From an uncultured Candidatus Saccharibacteria bacterium (GTDB lineage: Bacteria > Patescibacteriota > Minisyncoccia > Phycocordibacterales > JACNGX01), in NCBI GenBank assembly GCA_964621395.1, contig CAZULS010000002.1:236252-294908 (forward strand): a DNA stretch of 58,657 nt. The letters run 5' to 3'. The translations under genes and the position numbers were made by a program. The notes under the pieces were generated by a model. That model had not been told where the DNA came from. It was given only the letters and a program-made list of their open reading frames with translations, and did no database searches. This document shows positions 3,127-48,629 of the stretch, in pieces (position 1 is the stretch's first letter; the number at the start of each line of letters is the position of its first letter).

Positions 3127-3200
3127 CGGGCTGTAGCATAGTGGTAGTGTGCACGATTCGGGTTCGTGCGGCGGCGGTTCGATTCCGCCCAGCCCGACCA
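3127..3200 (+). tRNA. tRNA-Pro (anticodon CGG), CCA encoded
   Basis: Cloverleaf folded by hand: acceptor CGGGCTG/CAGCCCG, anticodon loop TTCGGGT, T-arm GGCGG-TTCGATT-CCGCC. Confidence 0.9.
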
Positions 3201-3214
3201 AAGGGAGGGGTGGA

Positions 3215-3350
3215 ATGCCACACCTCAGATGCTAAATATTCTCCATACATTAAATTACCCCCCAAAGGGTCTAAACTATATGTATTGGGCACTTAGCTTA
3301 TGAGGTGTGGCATGTACGGAATCGAACGGCGGAGTATGTCTGGCGACTTA
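3215..3350 (+). ncRNA. partial tRNA-linked element (TLE-E0): 5' module only
   Basis: Arms ATGCCACACCTCA (3215-3227) and TGAGGTGTGGCAT (3301-3313) are followed by CGGAATCGAAC (3317-3327), which is complementary to the T-loop/stem of tRNA-Pro. The conserved 3' hairpin is missing. Confidence 0.5.
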
Positions 3351-3357
3351 ATTGTTT

Positions 3358-3428
3358 GTCATCCCGCACTTGACCCTAAACCACAAGCGGTCGGATACAA
3401 TACGGGATCTTCCCGAATATCCTCAAAG
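3358..3428 (+). repeat. long GTCAT hairpin variant (GTCATCCCGCACTTGA-insert-CGGGATC plus tail)
   Basis: Near-identical second copy at 26691-26760. Confidence 0.75.
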
Positions 3429-3440
3429 ACAAAAGAAGAA

Positions 3441-3511
3441 CGGGCCATAGTACAGTGGCAGTATGTACCCATGGGGTGGGTATGGCGGCGGTTCGATTCC
3501 GCCTGGCCCGA
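3441..3511 (+). tRNA. tRNA-Pro (anticodon GGG), no encoded CCA
   Basis: Acceptor CGGGCCA/TGGCCCG, anticodon loop ATGGGGT, T-arm GGCGG-TTCGATT-CCGCC. Confidence 0.9.
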
Positions 3512-3695
3512 ACGAACGAAGTGAGTGAGGGTCAGAGGGATGCAACTGCTTGCATCCCGTGCGGAATCGAAGGGCCGGAATATATCCTGCGCTTGCGCAG
3601 GATTTGAGGCGCCGTCCAAGAGTACTTGGCGAAATACAAGCTTCAGCGCAGTATTTCGGTTAGTAACTCTGGGACGATTCGCCTGGCCCGAACGA
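3512..3695 (+). ncRNA. tRNA-linked structured element TLE-E1 plus displaced partial tRNA-Pro 3' copy
   Basis: Hairpin at 3537-3558. GCGGAATCGAA (3561-3571) is the rc of the tRNA T-loop plus 3' T-stem. The conserved terminal hairpin spans 3614-3675 and ends TTAGTAACTCTGGGAC. Positions 3675-3695 repeat the tRNA from C56 to 4 nt past its end. Confidence 0.65.
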
Positions 3696-22381: not shown

Positions 22382-22559
22382 TCGTGCTGCCGGACTAGGA
22401 GTGCTCACTGCTCCCAAGCACCACTTTCGTAAACGAAAGGTGGTGTTCGGTCCGCTCGCGGAACCCACGGTTCCACGGACATCCTCCACGGGGCCGTTCC
22501 GGCGACCCCGACCCCCGACGAGTTCGAGTCCTAGTTCGTCGCTCTCGCTATCGCTCGTG
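22382..22559 (-). ncRNA. variant tRNA-linked element (TLE-E5) with displaced tRNA-Gln 3' copy
   Basis: The 19-nt direct repeat TCGTGCTGCCGGACTAGGA occurs at 22382-22400 and 22555-22573. A hairpin at 22516-22541 presents, in tRNA sense, ACTAGGACTCGAAC, the rc of the T-arm of tRNA-Gln. It shares the ACACCACYTTC/GAAAGTGGTG stem with TLE-E4. Confidence 0.5.
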
Positions 22560-22630
22560 CTGCCGGACTAGGACTCGAACCTAGATTGACGGGACCAAAA
22601 CCCGCTGTCCTACCATTAGACGATCCGGCA
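22560..22630 (-). tRNA. tRNA-Gln (anticodon TTG)
   Basis: Acceptor TGCCGGA/TCCGGCA (U1-A72), anticodon loop TTTTGGT, T-arm CTAGG-TTCGAGT-CCTAG. Confidence 0.9.
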
Positions 22631-25399: not shown

Positions 25400-26668
25400 C
25401 TAAAGCCGTCTCAGAAACTCCCCTGCTATTCTGTATACATCTTGATACGTGTCTGCATTCATGAGCTTCATGCGGAGTTCTTTTGCTCCAGGGAATCCAC
25501 GGACGTATGCGGAATAGTGCTTTTTCATGATGGCGAAGTTTTTGTTTGGGTGCATTTTTTCATAGAGTTTCGTGTGCTCGGTGAGTGTTTCAAGAATTTC
25601 TTCTACACTGCATGTATGCTCACCCCGCACCACGAGGGGTGCGGGGTTCTCTTCGTGCATGCCGCGCTGCTCACGCGGTGTATGAAGGAATATCCAAGGA
25701 TTACCAAACACCGCGCGACCAATCATGATGCCGTCGGCGCCGGTCTCTTGTGCTTTGTGTATACCGTCGGAAATGTTCGTAACATCACCATTACCGATAA
25801 TGAGCGTATGAGGTGCGTATTCATTTCGCAGCTCCACTGTACGTGCAACTCGCTCCCAACGTGCCGGTACTTTCGACATATCCTTGCGCGTGCGGGCATG
25901 GATAGTCAACGCGGGAAGATTGAGTGAAAGAAGCTCGGGAATCCACTCTTCCAGTATATCTTTCGAGAAACCAATGCGCGTCTTCACCGACACCGGCGTA
26001 TCTTTTCCCGCCGCTTTTACTCCTTCGCGCACCGCTTCCACAATCTCCTTTGCGCGCTTGGGATCACGAATAAGATCGGCGCCGGCGCGCTGCTTGATAA
26101 TCGCCTCTTGAGGGCATCCCATATTGATATCGATGCCATTGAAATTAAGCTTCGCCACTTCGCGCGCACCGATACACATCGTCTCCGGATTACCCCCAAA
26201 AATCTGCGCGATAATCGGTCGTTGCTTTTTGGTATAGGCGAGGTCGGAAATGAGATGAGGTCGCCCTTCATCGCTCGCTAATCCGTCGCAAGCGACGAAT
26301 TCAGTCCACATGATGTCCGGTCCCCCGTGTTTTGTGCTCATCAACGAATCAAACCCTCTAAAAACAGGAAAAGGTAAGAAGGAATTTTTCATGAGCTCCG
26401 CTTGGCAGTCCTCGCATCGAATATTCGGCTGCGCCTCGTTACTCAAACACGCCGCACAGGAGTGCGCCGTATTTTCCGTAACATCGGCTCGCACGAATCT
26501 TCGCCACGAGAACAAGCCATTTTCAGAGGGTTCAATTCTACTTTTCCTCGCAATAATTTCACGGAAGGCATTGTCGGTGGCATCTGCCATCGGCGCAAGC
26601 GCAAAAAACGGCTTCTTTCCTCGAACCGTATCCCACACATTCTTTTCTTGTCGGTGAAAGGTGAACAT
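25400..26668 (-). CDS. dus: tRNA-dihydrouridine synthase carrying a ~70-aa repeat-derived insertion
   Basis: LAPMADATDNAFR, IDINMGCP and a TIM-barrel Dus pattern. The start was set at MFTFHRQEK (26668). The track ORF extension to 26893 runs through repeats. Confidence 0.88.
   Translation of the reverse strand: MFTFHRQEKNVWDTVRGKKPFFALAPMADATDNAFREIIARKSRIEPSENGLFSWRRFVRADVTENTAHSCAACLSNEAQPNIRCEDCQAELMKNSFLPFPVFRGFDSLMSTKHGGPDIMWTEFVACDGLASDEGRPHLISDLAYTKKQRPIIAQIFGGNPETMCIGAREVAKLNFNGIDINMGCPQEAIIKQRAGADLIRDPKRAKEIVEAVREGVKAAGKDTPVSVKTRIGFSKDILEEWIPELLSLNLPALTIHARTRKDMSKVPARWERVARTVELRNEYAPHTLIIGNGDVTNISDGIHKAQETGADGIMIGRAVFGNPWIFLHTPREQRGMHEENPAPLVVRGEHTCSVEEILETLTEHTKLYEKMHPNKNFAIMKKHYSAYVRGFPGAKELRMKLMNADTYQDVYRIAGEFLRRL
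26346..26538 (+). mobile_element. R200 TIR element, copy C, inside the dus reading frame
   Basis: DNA alignable to 32527-32721 and 41329-41524 (CTTGGCA..CTCGCA..ATATTCGGCTG..CATCGGCTCGCACGAAT..CACGAGAA.AAGCCATTT). Its own arms are GAATCAAACCCTCTAAAAA / TTTTCAGAGGGTTCAATTC. Confidence 0.75.
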
Positions 26669-26690
26669 TGTTAGACAAAAGATAACAGGT

Positions 26691-26760
26691 GTCATCCCGC
26701 ACTTGATCCTAAACCACAAGTGGTCGGATGCAATGCGGGATCTTCCCGAATAACCTTCAA
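26691..26760 (+). repeat. long GTCAT hairpin variant, copy 2
   Basis: Matches 3358-3428. Confidence 0.75.
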
Positions 26761-26775
26761 AAATAATATATCGAA

Positions 26776-26801
26776 GATTCCGGCTCGGGGGCCGGAATGA
26801 C
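26776..26801 (-). repeat. GTCAT hairpin (CCGGC stem class)
   Basis: The rc reads GTCATTCCGGCCCCCGAGCCGGAATC. Confidence 0.75.
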
Positions 26802-26810
26802 AGGAGAAAA

Positions 26811-27668
26811 TCATTCCGCCTCCCCTTTCTCTCGGAAAAATACCTTATTCCCGAAACGCATATCAAGATACTCCCAATCGGTGTTTTCTTCAAGCGATTC
26901 CAAGACCGCTATAATATCGGTACCCACTTTATCCGGATTCACGTCAAGCGGATACATGAGATAGGTATCGTCCTCAAAGAAAAGGTAGCCGTCTTCTCCG
27001 CGAAATTCATGACGCACACCAATCAAACCACCCTCTTCCACACGTTCAACCACGGCAACAGTATTTTCAAACACCTCATCCGGAGCGATATATGTGCCGA
27101 CAGCCTCTTTTTCCACTTCGCCACCATACCACTGAAAAAACGCCGAACCGGAAAAGAGCGGTGCCTCGTCAAAGATAAATCCTTCCGTGTCCACAAAGTA
27201 ACATGTCGGTGTATATTCCTCTCCGATGAGCGCTTTGTCACGTTCACGATCGATGTATGAATCTTCACACCACAGAGACACAGGAACGCGTTCGGTAATA
27301 TCGATGATAATTGCCGTCATATTCTCTCGCTTCACAGAAAGTGTATCCACTCGAAGAAATGTTTCCATGATGCGAGTAATAATATCGTTCTTGGGGTACC
27401 AGAGCGTATTGGCACGATTCCACATGAGAAAATTATTTCCCTCCAGTTCTTGTTGTGCCAAGTCAATGACACTTTCCTCATCAATCGTCTTCACACCCTC
27501 CACCTTCACAGAACGTATGGATACCGCTTCGTGATGCGAGCCCCATGCGAGAAGTCCGACAATGCAGCACATGCCCAATACACCAATGCCGAAAAAGACG
27601 CCGAGCTTCTTGTGTTCTTTACGGCGTTTTTCTTTTCTCTTTCGATGGATGAGTGTATGGCGACGCAT
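26811..27668 (-). CDS. ftsQ: cell division protein FtsQ/DivIB-like (POTRA)
   Basis: Basic N-terminus, a TM helix, then IRSVKVEGVKTIDEESV, which is POTRA-like. Confidence 0.65.
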   Translation of the reverse strand: MRRHTLIHRKRKEKRRKEHKKLGVFFGIGVLGMCCIVGLLAWGSHHEAVSIRSVKVEGVKTIDEESVIDLAQQELEGNNFLMWNRANTLWYPKNDIITRIMETFLRVDTLSVKRENMTAIIIDITERVPVSLWCEDSYIDRERDKALIGEEYTPTCYFVDTEGFIFDEAPLFSGSAFFQWYGGEVEKEAVGTYIAPDEVFENTVAVVERVEEGGLIGVRHEFRGEDGYLFFEDDTYLMYPLDVNPDKVGTDIIAVLESLEENTDWEYLDMRFGNKVFFREKGEAE

Positions 27669-45911: not shown

Positions 45912-45986
<75 letters not shown>

Positions 45987-46072
45987 GTAGAAAATCCCCG
46001 CAAGGGGATTTTCTACTGGAGGCCACGGAGAGCAAGGCAATTGCTTGCCTTGCGTCGGGAATCGAACCCGCC
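45987..46072 (+). ncRNA. partial tRNA-linked element (TLE-E6): inverted copy of the tRNA-Cys 3' half split by a hairpin
   Basis: Hairpin at 45987-46016. TGGAGGCCACGG (46017-46028) is the rc of the tRNA 3' end. A second hairpin lies at 46032-46053. CGGGAATCGAACCCGCC (46056-46072) is the rc of the T-arm. Confidence 0.5.
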
Positions 46073-46779: not shown

Positions 46780-46951
46780 GGGATTCGGTCACAAGTCACT
46801 AAGCATAATACTTCGCCAAGGCTCGTATTCTGCTAAGTGCTTCCGACATGGCTGCGGCTTTCGAATCCCACGGCGCGACACATGGTCGCGCATCGCTTAT
46901 AGATTGGAGAGGTCAATTCGTGTTCACATCGACCACAGGAGTCTCTACATG
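46780..46951 (-). ncRNA. tRNA-linked structured element TLE-E3 (after tRNA-Leu-TAA)
   Basis: In tRNA sense: the hairpin GCGCG-ACCATGTGT-CGCGC, GTGGGATTCGAA (rc of the T-arm), and a conserved terminal hairpin (46788-46847) ending TTAGTGACTTGTGAC, followed by CGAATCCC (46780-46787). Confidence 0.6.
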
Positions 46952-47036
46952 TGCCCGGGGTGGGATTCGAACCCACGCGATCGCAATGATCAGGGGATTT
47001 TAAGTCCCCCGTGTCTACCAACTCCACCACCCGGGC
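46952..47036 (-). tRNA. tRNA-Leu (anticodon TAA)
   Basis: Acceptor GCCCGGG/CCCGGGC, anticodon loop CTTAAAA, long variable arm, T-arm GTGGG-TTCGAAT-CCCAC. Confidence 0.9.
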
Positions 47037-47039
47037 AGT

Positions 47040-47255
47040 AAAGCACGATGTTTGTGCTAGTGCGGACGGAGAGACTCGTCCCACGATTACTAATTATAAT
47101 GCTTCGCTAAAGCTCGCATTCTAATAAGTATCGCTGGACGCGGCTCGCAATTGTCGCAACAAGTTGCTCCAATATAGCTGCGCCGTTCGAGTCTCTCGGA
47201 CAAGACACATGGTCTTGTCCAGATATACACGTCCGTCATGACTTCAGTCTCTCTC
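47040..47255 (-). ncRNA. tRNA-linked structured element TLE-E2 (after tRNA-Leu-TAG) with 39-nt displaced tRNA 3' copy
   Basis: The core is 47079-47255. The 39-nt direct repeat at 47040-47078 equals 47256-47294 (tRNA C56 to 21 nt past the 3' end). It contains CGGACGTG (the 5' acceptor strand), the hairpin GGACAAG-ACCATGTGT-CTTGTCC, GAGAGACTCGAAC, and a terminal hairpin at 47078-47139. Confidence 0.7.
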
Positions 47256-47276
47256 AAAGCACGATGTTTGTGCTAG

Positions 47277-47358
47277 TGCGGACGGAGAGACTCGAACTCT
47301 CATGGGTTGCCCCGCCAGCTCCTAAGGCTGGTGCGTCTACCAATTTCGCCACGTCCGC
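47277..47358 (-). tRNA. tRNA-Leu (anticodon TAG)
   Basis: Acceptor GCGGACG/CGTCCGC, anticodon loop CTTAGGA, long variable arm, T-arm GAGAG-TTCGAGT-CTCTC. Confidence 0.9.
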
Positions 47359-47414
47359 TTTTTCTTTCCTGAAAAGAGCCGCTCTATCGTATGCTGATAA
47401 AACGGCTTTCTCGT

Positions 47415-47721
47415 GTCCATCCACCAGTCTCGTCCCACAGTCACTAAGTAAAATGCTCCGGGCACTCGCATTTTACAAAGTGCTACTGGACGCCGAACAC
47501 CACTTTCACTTACAACAAAAGATGGTCACTGCTCGTTAGGAGAAATTCCTAACATTTAATTCACCAATCAAAGTAATCAGTGAAAGTGGTGTTTGGTTCG
47601 ATTCCTGACATGCCACACCTCACATGCAATTTTTCTCAAGCACTATATATTTACAATACCATCGCAGTAAGTCTCTACAAAAGTATTCCGTGTGAGGTGT
47701 GGCATTGTGTCTGGACTAAAG
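47415..47721 (-). ncRNA. tRNA-linked structured element TLE-E4 (after tRNA-Lys) with a nested inverted-repeat hairpin
   Basis: A nested hairpin with ATGCCACACCTCA/TGAGGTGTGGCAT arms lies at 47610-47705. CAGGAATCGAACC is the rc of 47595-47607. Also present are an ACACCACTTTCAC/GTGAAAGTGGTGT stem, a terminal hairpin at 47432-47491, and the tRNA 3' copy CTGGTGGATGGAC (rc of 47415-47427). Confidence 0.65.
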
Positions 47722-47794
47722 TCCATCCACCAGGAATCGAACCTGGAACCTGCCGGTTAAGAGCCGGATGCTCTACCAATTGAGCTATGGATGG
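47722..47794 (-). tRNA. tRNA-Lys (anticodon CTT)
   Basis: Acceptor CCATCCA/TGGATGG (C1-G72), anticodon loop CTCTTAA, T-arm CCAGG-TTCGATT-CCTGG. Confidence 0.85.
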
Positions 47795-47830
47795 GTTCAA
47801 ACATCATATAATAAAAAACGTGTTCTCGCA

Positions 47831-47958
47831 ACAACAAAACCGTCCGACACCACTTACACAGAGTAAGTATGCGCTGATTAAAAACTCAAAACGACCACTG
47901 TTATGTTAGTGGTCGTTTTGAATATGCGAGTGTAAGTGGTGTCGGACGATTTTGTTGT
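47831..47958. repeat. 29-bp inverted repeat arms around an inner hairpin
   Basis: ACAACAAAACCGTCCGACACCACTTACAC pairs with GTGTAAGTGGTGTCGGACGATTTTGTTGT. The inner hairpin is CAAAACGACCAC..GTGGTCGTTTTG. Confidence 0.75.
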
Positions 47959-47972
47959 TCTTCTAAGAACGT

Positions 47973-48218
47973 CTATACTCCAATTGTATTCTTGATCAAA
48001 TTAATGATACCGGCGACGGCAACCATGATGAACATGCCAACCAAACCCCAGGTGATGTGTTTCTTTCCATTTTCTCGTTCCGCGTCGTTACCGGAATAAA
48101 ATATATACCGTACGACGCCAAAAAGGAAAAGTACAAAACCGAGAGCAAATATCACGCCAATGACCGGATTGATAATATGCTCTACGATATTACCGATGAG
48201 GTTGTGGATTGCTTCCAT
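47973..48218 (-). CDS. TrbC/VirB2-like T4SS pilin-family small membrane protein (paralog 5)
   Basis: 81 aa with two TM helices flanking a charged loop (SGNDAERENGKK). Confidence 0.55.
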   Translation of the reverse strand: MEAIHNLIGNIVEHIINPVIGVIFALGFVLFLFGVVRYIFYSGNDAERENGKKHITWGLVGMFIMVAVAGIINLIKNTIGV

Positions 48219-48239
48219 GAGAAACGTACCAAATCACTA

Positions 48240-48629
48240 TTAATTTGACGGCCATCTATCGGCATCAGATGAGCCGGGAAGTCGTACCTCTGGAATCGGA
48301 GCAGTTCCTCCTCTATTGATGTCAAATGTTTCTGCAATTACACCAACAAGACCCCATACGGCAACCATAACAAAGAGTGTAATGATTCCGTAGATCATGA
48401 TAGTGCGTCCTTTTTCTTTGTCTTCATCTGCTTTTACAAGATACATTGCTAAACCGAAGAAGAAAATAACAACCGCCAAGGTAATCACAATCGGAATGAG
48501 CAAGTCAAGAATCCTCTTTACGACACCGAGGATGCTTATTGCCGAAGTTGCGGCAAGCACAACGCTCGGGAGAAGTGTCACTGCAAGCCCTACAATTGTG
48601 CCCTTAAATATAGACTGTTTCATAAACAT
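48240..48629 (-). CDS. TrbC/VirB2-like pilin-family protein (paralog 4)
   Basis: 129 aa with a signal-like N-terminus and two TM helices around KADEDKEKGR. Confidence 0.55.
   Translation of the reverse strand: MFMKQSIFKGTIVGLAVTLLPSVVLAATSAISILGVVKRILDLLIPIVITLAVVIFFFGLAMYLVKADEDKEKGRTIMIYGIITLFVMVAVWGLVGVIAETFDINRGGTAPIPEVRLPGSSDADRWPSN

Follow-up and report, generated by a model that had tools for sequence, protein, structure and literature searches.

A direct repeat that runs from the T-loop to the 3' end of a tRNA gene, or past it, is the classical mark of integration into tRNA genes. Among the transposons described so far, the insertion sequences (IS) of the IS91 family produce no target duplication; the target, GTTC, GTCC or CTTG, abuts one end of the element, a subterminal palindrome abuts the cleavage site of the other end, and a mini-element of 89 + 82 bp (approx. 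170 bp of ends) suffices for transposition when the transposase is provided in trans (PMC13181058). In bridge RNAs, the 5' guide has the same sense as the left target and the 3' guide is antisense to the right target (PMC11208160), and the CGTC-type repetitive extragenic palindromes (REPs) start with CGTC (PMC3733652). The region considered here, positions 46780–47794 of a 58,657-nt stretch of contig CAZULS010000002.1 (hereafter the window, which means the whole stretch that was analysed), contains three tRNA genes, each followed by a homologous structured element that carries direct and inverted copies of parts of its own tRNA. Judged from their sequences, these elements and their homologues constitute an undescribed family of small non-coding elements (approx. 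160–330 nt) in the tRNA genes of one clade of Paceibacteria/Parcubacteria; no prior description of them was found in the literature searched. We tentatively favour the view that they are non-autonomous, DNA-level insertion elements that home into the T-loop and fold as a single strand.

The genes for tRNA-Lys(CTT) (47721–47794), tRNA-Leu(TAG) (47276–47358) and tRNA-Leu(TAA) (46951–47036) were detected with ARAGORN and Rfam on the minus strand, where an initial annotation of the window, made by a model from the sequence alone, had placed them. All three are contiguous and reach 60–70 bits against the tRNA model. From T-loop position 57 onward, each gene is at the same time the left end of an element, i.e., of element 1 in tRNA-Lys (47721–47738, up to the 3' end of the gene), element 2 in tRNA-Leu(TAG) and element 3 in tRNA-Leu(TAA). 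The full order of modules, taken from relatives (e.g., the Arg-TCT element of the related locus L019), is the tRNA, its native trailer hairpin or intrinsic terminator, an anti-acceptor segment, hairpin (i), a T followed by the antisense of tRNA positions 53–64 (the anti-T segment), a linker hairpin, the terminal hairpin (iv), and again the tRNA from position 57, here referred to as (v). The anti-acceptor segment has up to 10–12 nt complementary to the 3' acceptor strand plus the discriminator. The stem of hairpin (i) covaries beneath an invariant A-CTGC-T apex, and in some elements a long hairpin replaces it. The linker hairpin is of two types, GGCGGAGCATG...GAGCCGC or GAGCACCACTTTT, and the conserved hairpin (iv), of approx. 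65 nt, has a C as its last paired base (...GGAC, GAAC or GACC).

In the region under study all the module strings were located exactly on the minus strand, and the coordinates given are window positions. Element 2 starts with the live 3' piece of tRNA-Leu(TAG) and its trailer hairpin (47256–47294), followed by the anti-acceptor segment CGGACGTG (47228–47235), which is identical to the 5' acceptor strand of its tRNA and whose CGGACG is complementary to the 3' acceptor strand; hairpin (i) (47198–47220, GGACAAG-ACCATGTGT-CTTGTCC); the anti-T segment GAGAGACTCGAAC (47185–47197); the linker hairpin (47140–47184, GGCGCAGC...GAGCCGC); hairpin (iv) (47078–47139); and the displaced original 3' end with its native trailer (47040–47078), which abuts tRNA-Leu(TAA). 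The first and last of these stretches are the two copies of a direct repeat, identical at 39/39 positions, or 40/40 with the shared preceding C. Hairpin (iv) of this element is 100% identical to that of the Pro-CGG elements of the metagenome-assembled genome (MAG) NIOZ-UU136 (locus L011), and the linkers of the two are approx. 65% alike by eye. Element 1 carries a long hairpin (i) (47612–47703) with the arms GCCACACCTCACA (47691–47703) and TGTGAGGTGTGGC (47612–47624), of the same type as that found 3' of tRNA-Pro-CGG; the anti-T segment CAGGAATCGAACC (47595–47607), reverse complement of tRNA positions 52–64; a linker hairpin (47497–47592) with the arms ACACCACTTTCACT and AGTGAAAGTGGTGT; hairpin (iv) (47432–47492), ending in ...GTGGGAC; and the displaced old tRNA 3' end (47415–47431), with 13 exact nt, which is decayed near the T-loop (GAGA-CTGGTGGATGGAC) and can be traced in this form to C56 (CGAGA-CTGG... 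versus CGATTCCTGG...). Element 3 consists of hairpin (i) (46873–46891, GCGCG-ACCATGTGT-CGCGC), the anti-T segment GTGGGATTCGAA (46860–46871), a hairpin (iv) of sub-type B (46788–46851) with the 3' end ...GTGAC, and a truncated old 3' piece of 8 nt, CGAATCCC (46780–46787). The initial annotation had reported the shared loop on different stems in both Leu hairpins (i), the exact reverse complementarity of each antisense segment to the T-loop and 3' T-stem of its own tRNA, the acceptor-strand copy of element 2 and the extent of the three direct copies, and all this was borne out. Every module that it listed was found, but the anti-acceptor segment and the linker hairpin had been missed as modules, and although the conserved terminal hairpin is present in all three elements, its end motif in Leu-TAA is one base shorter than the consensus proposed.

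The limits of the inserted unit can be read from its right junction and from an orthologous site that is empty. In the 18 parsed elements that have hairpin (iv), representing 15 anticodon species, the base after the terminal C is without exception tRNA position 57, and the junction follows G53-T54-T55-C56 in all of them (GTCC in tRNA-Gly-CCC). The complete element located 3' of tRNA-Pro(GGG) (3441–3511) on the plus strand of the window occupies positions 3512–3695, with the anti-acceptor segment at 3529–3535, hairpin (i) at 3537–3558, anti-T at 3561–3571, the linker at 3572–3613, hairpin (iv) at 3614–3675, and (v), which has a 1-nt deletion, at 3676–3695. This element and its counterpart in L031 are homologous throughout, left trailer included, and beyond (v), on the right, their flanking sequences are unrelated; the one in the window matches the trailer of the Pro-GGG gene of NIOZ-UU136, whose site is empty. 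Because of this match, the inserted unit is considered to extend from position 57 to the terminal GGAC, the terminal copy being the displaced original, and so the unoccupied gene, a kind of site that the initial annotation had proposed to look for, delimits the unit. The direct repeat of the tRNA 3' part that bounds it measures 40 nt in Leu-TAG, 20 nt in Pro-GGG, 13–19 nt in Lys and 8 nt in Leu-TAA; what had been described as a variable target duplication is better read as an element-borne replacement 3' end plus the displaced original. The number of units also varies: the Pro-CGG locus of NIOZ-UU136 has two identical units and an older one, Leu-TAG in L006 has two units, and the Val-CAC locus of one sample has a single unit, and that of another has at least two, which are identical and 163 nt long.

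The correspondence between the antisense segments and the adjacent tRNA was evaluated at 55 testable non-redundant tRNA loci on contigs of related Paceibacteria/Parcubacteria, by searching the 160 nt downstream of each tRNA for the antisense of its own 12-mer, with up to 2 mismatches allowed. It was present in 31 of the 55 tRNAs, against 4/53 in the upstream control and 6.6% for the antisense of other tRNAs, which indicates that the match is not due to chance; the relationship put forward in the initial annotation thus extends to further copies. In these 31 elements, 369 of 403 anti-T positions form Watson–Crick pairs with the live tRNA, and the interior exceptions on the sense strand comprise 8 G.T versus 2 A.C. 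An exact anti-acceptor of at least 6 nt was found in 17 of the 31 (5% in the cross-control). The anti-T segment spans the junction, with 4 nt on its left and 8–9 nt on its right. It is the live tRNA rather than the diverged (v) that the antisense matches in L014 Arg-CCT, L019 Arg-TCT, and Lys-CTT in three genomes; likewise, between the window and L031 the anti-acceptor changes with the substitutions of the acceptor stem (GGGTCAG versus GGGCTAA), the window copy keeping one T.G wobble. The Lys-CTT element occurs in the window, in L006 and in L033/L041; the decay GGTAGGATGG of the terminal copy is common to L006 and L033/L041, the (v) of the window decayed separately, and across the Lys-CTT copies the anti-T is still complementary to the live tRNA at 12–13 of 13 positions. 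Many of the element copies appear to be old and vertically inherited. The Arg-TCT and Ser-TGA elements of one Yonathbacteria genome are identical at 103 of 106 positions from CGAAC to GGGAC (approx. 97%), and they differ in the variable 9 nt of the anti-T and in the anti-acceptor.

An alignment of 18 distinct copies of hairpin (iv) revealed compensatory double changes in 11 of its 20 pairs, and the predicted folding z-scores range from −3.6 to −9.6; on account of both, the structure must be under selection in a single-stranded molecule. The minimum-energy folds obtained with RNA and DNA parameters agree on three domains for the Lys, Leu-TAG and L011 units. Domain 1, as predicted, is formed by the live 3' piece of the tRNA together with the anti-T and the anti-acceptor, with which it pairs around hairpin (i); this domain is followed by the linker hairpin and then by hairpin (iv). 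In these models the left end of the element folds into a three-way junction. For Leu-TAA, domain 1 is predicted in the centroid structure only, and the minimum-energy fold pairs the anti-T with (v).

Motif searches for hairpin (iv) yielded 15 loci from GTDB genomes and 25 from JGI metagenomes; a first, strict pattern that was one base too rigid gave no match in GTDB, and a looser pattern was used. Nearly all the matches that include the flanking closing stem lie no more than a few hundred nt downstream of a tRNA on the same strand, singly or in tandem, and those without this context, found in unrelated phyla, are due to chance. The family occupies more than 20 tRNA species in related genomes, and homologous elements are present in at least 8 independent MAGs or single-cell amplified genomes (SAGs) plus many metagenome contigs. 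A profile of hairpin (iv) gave exactly four matches in the window, the fourth at 3610–3677, 3' of tRNA-Pro-GGG, and 51 in the fetched DNA (those of the window and 47 in related loci, some of which are duplicate fetches of one contig), all of them in the tRNA-linked contexts examined. No tRNA was called for the matches of L025 and L036, which are cut off before the tRNA, of L028, where an IS110 is inserted and the element still ends in a tRNA 3' copy, and of L039, where an array has no tRNA within approx. 1 kb upstream. The element is missing from other Patescibacteria whose tRNA-Leu(TAG) is nearly identical. Only tRNAs exceeded the gathering threshold in Rfam, and nothing meaningful appeared up to an E-value of 5 for the region, or of 1 for two related loci, so that, as far as this check suggested in the initial annotation goes, no Rfam family explains the layout. 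Motif scans of IMG/VR gave only chance matches inside coding sequence, with no viral counterpart and no phage or plasmid parent.

The IS mentioned for L028 (41–1400, Ga0268280_1025190) is of the IS110/IS1111 type and lies inside the anti-T of the element (CAGGATTCGA-IS-CGAAC). It has an ORF (open reading frame) of 358 aa with DEDD_Tnp_IS110 and Transposase_20 domains, subterminal inverted repeats CCCCATAGAACCCTG / CAGGGTTCTATAG, and a long right end with GGATTCGA, which runs in the sense of the left target plus core, as the left target guide of a bridge RNA should. From its location it follows that bridge-type IS of this clade target T-loop-like sequences. Other repeats are associated with the elements as well. 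A second, palindromic repeat family of approx. 100–130 nt, with the ends CCAGCYCYAYTTTYAT...ATRAAARTRGRGCTGG and an AT-rich centre, was seen in L006 (10813–10828), L014 (351–449), L020 (7767–7866), L021, L033, L039, L041, L048 and L049, and has no member in the window; it occupies apex positions of the tRNA-linked elements, i.e., the trailer hairpin, hairpin (i) and the linker, as well as the tip of hairpin (iv) in L021 and L041. A third element type, in L019 (4373–4575, minus strand) and L028 (1525–1720), has a type-B terminal hairpin (...TTAGTGACTCGTGGCC), sits between the 3' end of the displaced tRNA copy and its terminator, shows ATAT at both borders, and is devoid of anti-T. In the single-cell genome AM-311-L09 (L005, 8300–8790), a free-standing HNH endonuclease-like ORF (...LDHVNGTRTDNRLENLRVLCPNCH...) is located between tRNA-Cys and tRNA-Leu(TAA).

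Seven of the eight tRNAs of the window carry an element, a number that results from reading the DNA downstream of the remaining tRNAs, which added Pro-GGG, Pro-CGG, Gln and Cys to the three described above. The elements of Lys, Leu-TAG, Leu-TAA and Pro-GGG are complete, and partial or divergent ones are found 3' of the Pro-CGG, Gln and Cys tRNAs, each with the antisense of its own T-arm; only tRNA-Leu(CAA) has none in the DNA read downstream of it. The initial annotation had counted four full copies, the three at 46780–47794 and by implication Pro-GGG; those four stand, but the partial and divergent copies had escaped it. The Pro-CGG element (3201–3440, plus strand), 3' of tRNA-Pro(CGG) (3127–3200), is shortened, with a long hairpin (i) at 3217–3311, anti-T at 3316–3327, and both hairpin (iv) and (v) deleted. 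The Cys element (45987–46071, plus strand), 3' of tRNA-Cys (45912–45986), is partial and includes a terminator-like hairpin, a 12-nt anti-acceptor (46017–46028), hairpin (i) (46032–46053) and a 16-nt anti-T (46056–46071). The Gln element (22382–22558, minus strand), 3' of tRNA-Gln (22559–22630), belongs to a second, Gln-type family, with the anti-T CTAGGACTCGAAC at 22522–22534 and the terminal copy CCTAGTCCGGCAGCACGA at 22382–22399. Elements of the Gln type, also seen in L039 (1340–1430) and in L048 after tRNA-Asp, have their own conserved core GGAGGATGTCCGTGGAACCGTGGGTTCCGCGAGCG, followed by an ACACCAC...GTGGTG hairpin and GGGAGCAGTGARCAYT, and their junction with the tRNA copy appears to be at the boundary between T-loop and 3' T-stem, not at 56/57.

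The only promoter-like site of the three-tRNA group is upstream of tRNA-Lys and there is no terminator between the genes; these tRNAs appear to form one transcription unit. Directly upstream of it are two small T4SS_pilin (PF18895) genes (47973–48629). Around the terminator (47886–47921) of the upstream pilin gene there is a 30-nt inverted repeat (47830–47959; AACAACAAAACCGTCCGACACCACTTACAC / GTGTAAGTGGTGTCGGACGATTTTGTTGTT, 97% complementary), which overlaps the promoter-like site of the tRNA operon and whose core ACACCACTT resembles the linker hairpins of the elements. The gene content of the window (a short IF-2, UvrABC, gyrase, topoisomerase I, DprA and T4SS-type pilins) is that of an ordinary chromosome of Parcubacteria/Paceibacteria, within the candidate phyla radiation (CPR), and the closest genome is NIOZ-UU136, with 91% identity in IF-2. 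The dihydrouridine synthase (Dus) ORF at 25400–26893 is unusually long (497 aa); its Pfam match covers residues 99–484 against a model of 311 positions, which suggests insertions. That the layout is a local duplication or an assembly artefact with chance complementarity has a negligible probability. An independent Logan contig breaks inside the 39-nt repeat, which means that this repeat troubles assemblers; nevertheless, the same contig is identical over the 330 nt that it covers, from the inside of the second repeat copy to the HD gene, and therefore an artefact private to this assembly is excluded. Furthermore, the homologues in at least 8 MAGs or SAGs and the specificity statistics rule out chance, so the possibility of an artefact raised in the initial annotation found no support.

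According to the reading that we favour, i.e., homing of a non-autonomous element into the T-loop, the left end of the unit is read as a replacement for the 3' part of the tRNA, starting at position 57, together with the native trailer or terminator. With this replacement the tRNA gene stays intact, and the original 3' end is pushed to the right border, where it decays. The customised antisense segments would represent the second arm of a subterminal palindrome inside the element; the other arm also serves as the 3' end of a tRNA that has to work, which forces the antisense arm to covary with this tRNA, and customisation would be a structural necessity and not a targeting device. The antisense segments are explained equally well by such an internal palindrome as by a guide function. 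The element would move or duplicate as a folded single strand, and cutting and joining would take place 3' of C, between GTTC and R in the target and between ...GGAC and R at the foot of hairpin (iv), by an enzyme supplied in trans. Each lineage would be locked to its tRNA, since only an insertion into the cognate tRNA would leave a functional gene. Of the three hypotheses offered in the initial annotation, the one that proposed a non-autonomous, T-loop-targeting mobile element is the best supported, by the fixed junction after C56, the delimited unit and the variation in tandem arrangement and copy number; its suggestion of a possible RNA guide is conjectural.

Several observations weigh against this proposal. 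No enzyme has been identified: as the initial annotation had stated for integrases, transposases and reverse transcriptases (RTs), no recombinase, RT or transposase was found among the 43 ORFs of the window (Pfam and NCBIfam; 8 of them also PHROGs), and in a pooled Pfam scan no recombinase family was matched by at least two of 150 element-flanking ORFs from relatives, a result that for families with a single match covers the 25 commonest of 116. The autonomous, protein-coding copy that had been suggested as worth seeking was not found in the GTDB representative genomes, the JGI metagenomes or IMG/VR. The empty Pro-GGG site could reflect a loss via the direct repeats instead of a gain, and the same 1-nt deletion is present in the Pro-GGG (v) of the window and of L031. 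Tandem arrays and changes in copy number may come from unequal crossing-over without transposition. The proposal does not explain how a new tRNA 3' end and both antisense segments are acquired, that is, retargeting, and the terminal GGAC differs from the target GTTC. Finally, a perfect anti-T in old copies with a decayed (v) could equally mean a host function, and those elements of the window that lie inside the apparent tRNA operon must be transcribed, so an RNA role is possible.

Such a role is the subject of an alternative that we consider unlikely, although credible, in which the elements encode a co-transcribed or read-through structured RNA with bipartite antisense pairing to the 3' third of its own tRNA or to the terminal copy (an acceptor/T-arm minihelix). 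Its role would be in the processing, modification or quality control of tRNAs, or it would give rise to a tRNA-like small RNA released by RNase P/Z, and duplication would have left the direct copy and the tandem units as by-products. The apparent single transcription unit of the window tRNAs, with its promoter-like site only before tRNA-Lys and no terminator between genes, is in agreement with this idea, and so are the strong covariation, the very negative z-scores, the bias of the mismatches to G.U on the sense strand and the absence of a linked protein in the scans; moreover, complementarity to the live tRNA is kept in old vertical copies and follows the substitutions of the acceptor stem, and conserved scaffolds with short variable antisense segments resemble families of guide-RNA genes. 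Nevertheless, where a tRNA stands alone, a canonical intrinsic terminator separates it from the antisense segments, the minihelix would need a terminal copy that is in fact decayed or truncated, and pairing in cis would compete with the cloverleaf. By inspection, there is no unpaired target nucleotide between the two antisense segments, and Rfam gave no match with E-values up to 5. Identical tandem units and strain-level differences in copy number are unexpected of a housekeeping RNA, and the element is absent from other Patescibacteria that have the same tRNA-Leu(TAG). The version of this idea contained in the initial annotation, a mimic RNA processed by RNase P/Z, needs an intact (v); however, (v) decays while the antisense tracks the live tRNA, and terminators are present at many loci. 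A guide function has also to be considered at the DNA level. It is doubtful that the family is a programmable homing system, in which a constant scaffold with a rewritable bipartite guide directs an enzyme acting in trans to cut and join at 56/57; the related model, in which the antisense pair around a constant hairpin is a bipartite RNA or single-stranded DNA guide that directs a trans-acting recombinase or nuclease to the T-arm and the acceptor 3' strand of the cognate tRNA gene, and whose reprogramming led to more than 20 tRNA species, is improbable. In favour of this model are the backbones that are approx. 97% identical and differ only in the 8–9 variable anti-T nucleotides and the anti-acceptor, and the position of the anti-T across the junction (4 nt on the left, 8–9 nt on the right); moreover, bridge recombinases of the IS110/IS1111 type exist in the clade, one of them exactly in an anti-T and with GGATTCGA in its right end. 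Yet this IS110 is a secondary insertion whose own ends are unrelated to the element; both segments pair with one DNA strand and none has the sense of the left target, unlike bridge RNAs (PMC11208160); pairing with the element's own 3' piece already accounts for the complementarity to the target; and in the ORFs scanned no recombinase is linked to any element.

Another explanation, to which we assign only a slight probability, is that the elements are scars of an integrase, i.e., that a phage, plasmid or integrative element integrated at the T-loop and internal deletions left attL–attR remnants, with tandem accretion like that of cis-mobilizable elements (CIMEs). A direct repeat from T-loop to 3' end is the signature that such integration leaves, tandem accretion is seen, and 160–290 nt is near the typical size of attP. 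The 3' duplication is therefore explained by the decayed att insertions that the initial annotation had listed as its third hypothesis, but the conserved covarying structure, the antisense segments and the near-identical backbones at many tRNAs are not. One complete small architecture, present at more than 20 tRNAs in several genomes, does not correspond to random deletion remnants; covarying hairpin stems point to folding of a single strand and not to double-stranded protein-binding sites; and antisense copies of the tRNA end have no explanation in integrase biology. No integrase was found in the ORFs of the window or, among the 25 commonest of the 116 families, in the flanks of the relatives, and the motif scans of IMG/VR gave no true match. 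Other models were tried and rejected: an origin from primer-binding sites with a mature tRNA as primer, because the copies include the trailer and have no CCA and the antisense has no TGG; an omega-RNA (TnpB) model, because, by reasoning, the occupied allele would itself be a target of a guide that equals (v); a modification guide of the H/ACA type, because the target has no unpaired nucleotide between the antisense segments and hence offers no modification pocket; introns of groups I and II, because nothing interrupts the tRNAs, the Rfam intron models gave no match and the nucleotides at the junction do not fit; the bridge-RNA model, because of the strand geometry (PMC11208160); and membership of the CGTC-type REPs, because of size and distribution.

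If these elements are or once were mobile, they would be the first family of this kind to occupy most of the tRNA genes of a genome without disrupting them, thanks to the replacement tRNA end and the antisense copy that goes with it. If they are functional RNAs instead, antisense RNAs that are tRNA-specific and cis-linked would be new to bacteria, and programmable homing, if true, would add to the bridge RNAs, omega RNAs, CRISPR-associated transposons and group II introns a new and separate class of site-specific DNA insertion guided by a nucleic acid. Near-identical scaffolds in which target-matched antisense segments are swapped are the same signature that led to the bridge RNAs and omega RNAs, and they may point to a new targeting enzyme. 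The family hence offers a testable lead, either to such an enzyme or to a new class of tRNA-linked RNA, and it explains the assembly breaks at the tRNA loci of these CPR genomes, as well as the annotated partial tRNA 3' fragments.

In its geometry, the element seems closest to single-strand transposition of the HUH/IS91 type, the likeness being one of layout. As in the IS91 family, there is no true target duplication if the flanking repeat is interpreted as an element-borne copy, the insertion is 3' of GTTC (GTCC in tRNA-Gly-CCC), and imperfect subterminal palindromes are located at the end that abuts the target. A hairpin abuts the other end, although the terminal tetranucleotide there is GGAC, GAAC or GACC instead of the GTTC or CTCG of IS91. 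In contrast with that family, the elements have the working 3' end of a tRNA as their left end, joined to a complementary arm specific for this tRNA, and they are strictly tied to tRNA genes. An HUH-Y2 domain was not found in the 43 window ORFs, nor among the 25 commonest of the 116 families from the 150 flanking ORFs. A tyrosine recombinase acting on a folded att site, as in CTX-phi or the integron attC, would fit the same facts as well. The attP of CTX-phi, an integrative mobile element exploiting Xer (IMEX), and attC also have a target-like sequence at the junction and an inverted copy of it approx. 40–110 nt inside, which can fold into a duplex that mimics the target; in them too, structure is conserved over sequence, as shown by covariation, the target is regenerated so that tandem arrays are formed, and the recombinase is not encoded by the element. 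The predicted fold of the elements is compatible with a folded att site, with no role of Xer or IntI implied; the target is a T-loop and not dif or attI, and by inspection only, there is no similarity to an R-box or a Xer-box. With the elements whose tyrosine integrase enters tRNA genes by a crossover in the T-loop, and with integrase-less CIMEs, the family shares the replacement tRNA 3' end, the displaced original as a repeat that starts in the T-loop, and tandem accretion; it differs from them in its size of 160–330 nt without genes, its inverted copies of the tRNA end and covarying hairpins, its single backbone at more than 20 tRNA species, and the absence of an integrase in the ORFs scanned.

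The bridge (seek) RNAs of IS110/IS1111, which are present in the same clade, likewise have short variable segments that match the target and flank a constant stem-loop; however, both segments of the element pair with the same strand, the one 5' of the hairpin is antisense to the acceptor strand, there is neither a donor-binding loop nor a DEDD recombinase, and the ends are unrelated. Like REPs and REPINs, the elements are small, non-coding, multicopy hairpin repeats for which any enzyme would act in trans, and the 5' strand of the closing stem of hairpin (iv) begins with CGTC, whereas REPs, palindromes with a GTAG or CGTC head that are scattered between genes, measure 20–40 bp against the approx. 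65 nt of hairpin (iv), are not tied to tRNAs and have no target-specific segments; RAYT, whose gene lies between REPs, was not found in the ORF scans. The layout of the anti-T, which pairs across the junction first with the downstream and then with the upstream side in the 5' to 3' direction, is that of the internal guide sequence (P1/P10) of a group I intron; nonetheless, the tRNA is contiguous without splicing, a core of approx. 110 nt is too small, the junction has no U.G, and a terminal G is missing. As far as the defining traits and the ORFs scanned go, the elements are not IS91, integrase, bridge-RNA, REP or intron elements, nor members of any Rfam family, and from these comparisons what they appear to be most like are miniature single-strand transposons or folded-att integrative elements that reside at tRNA genes.

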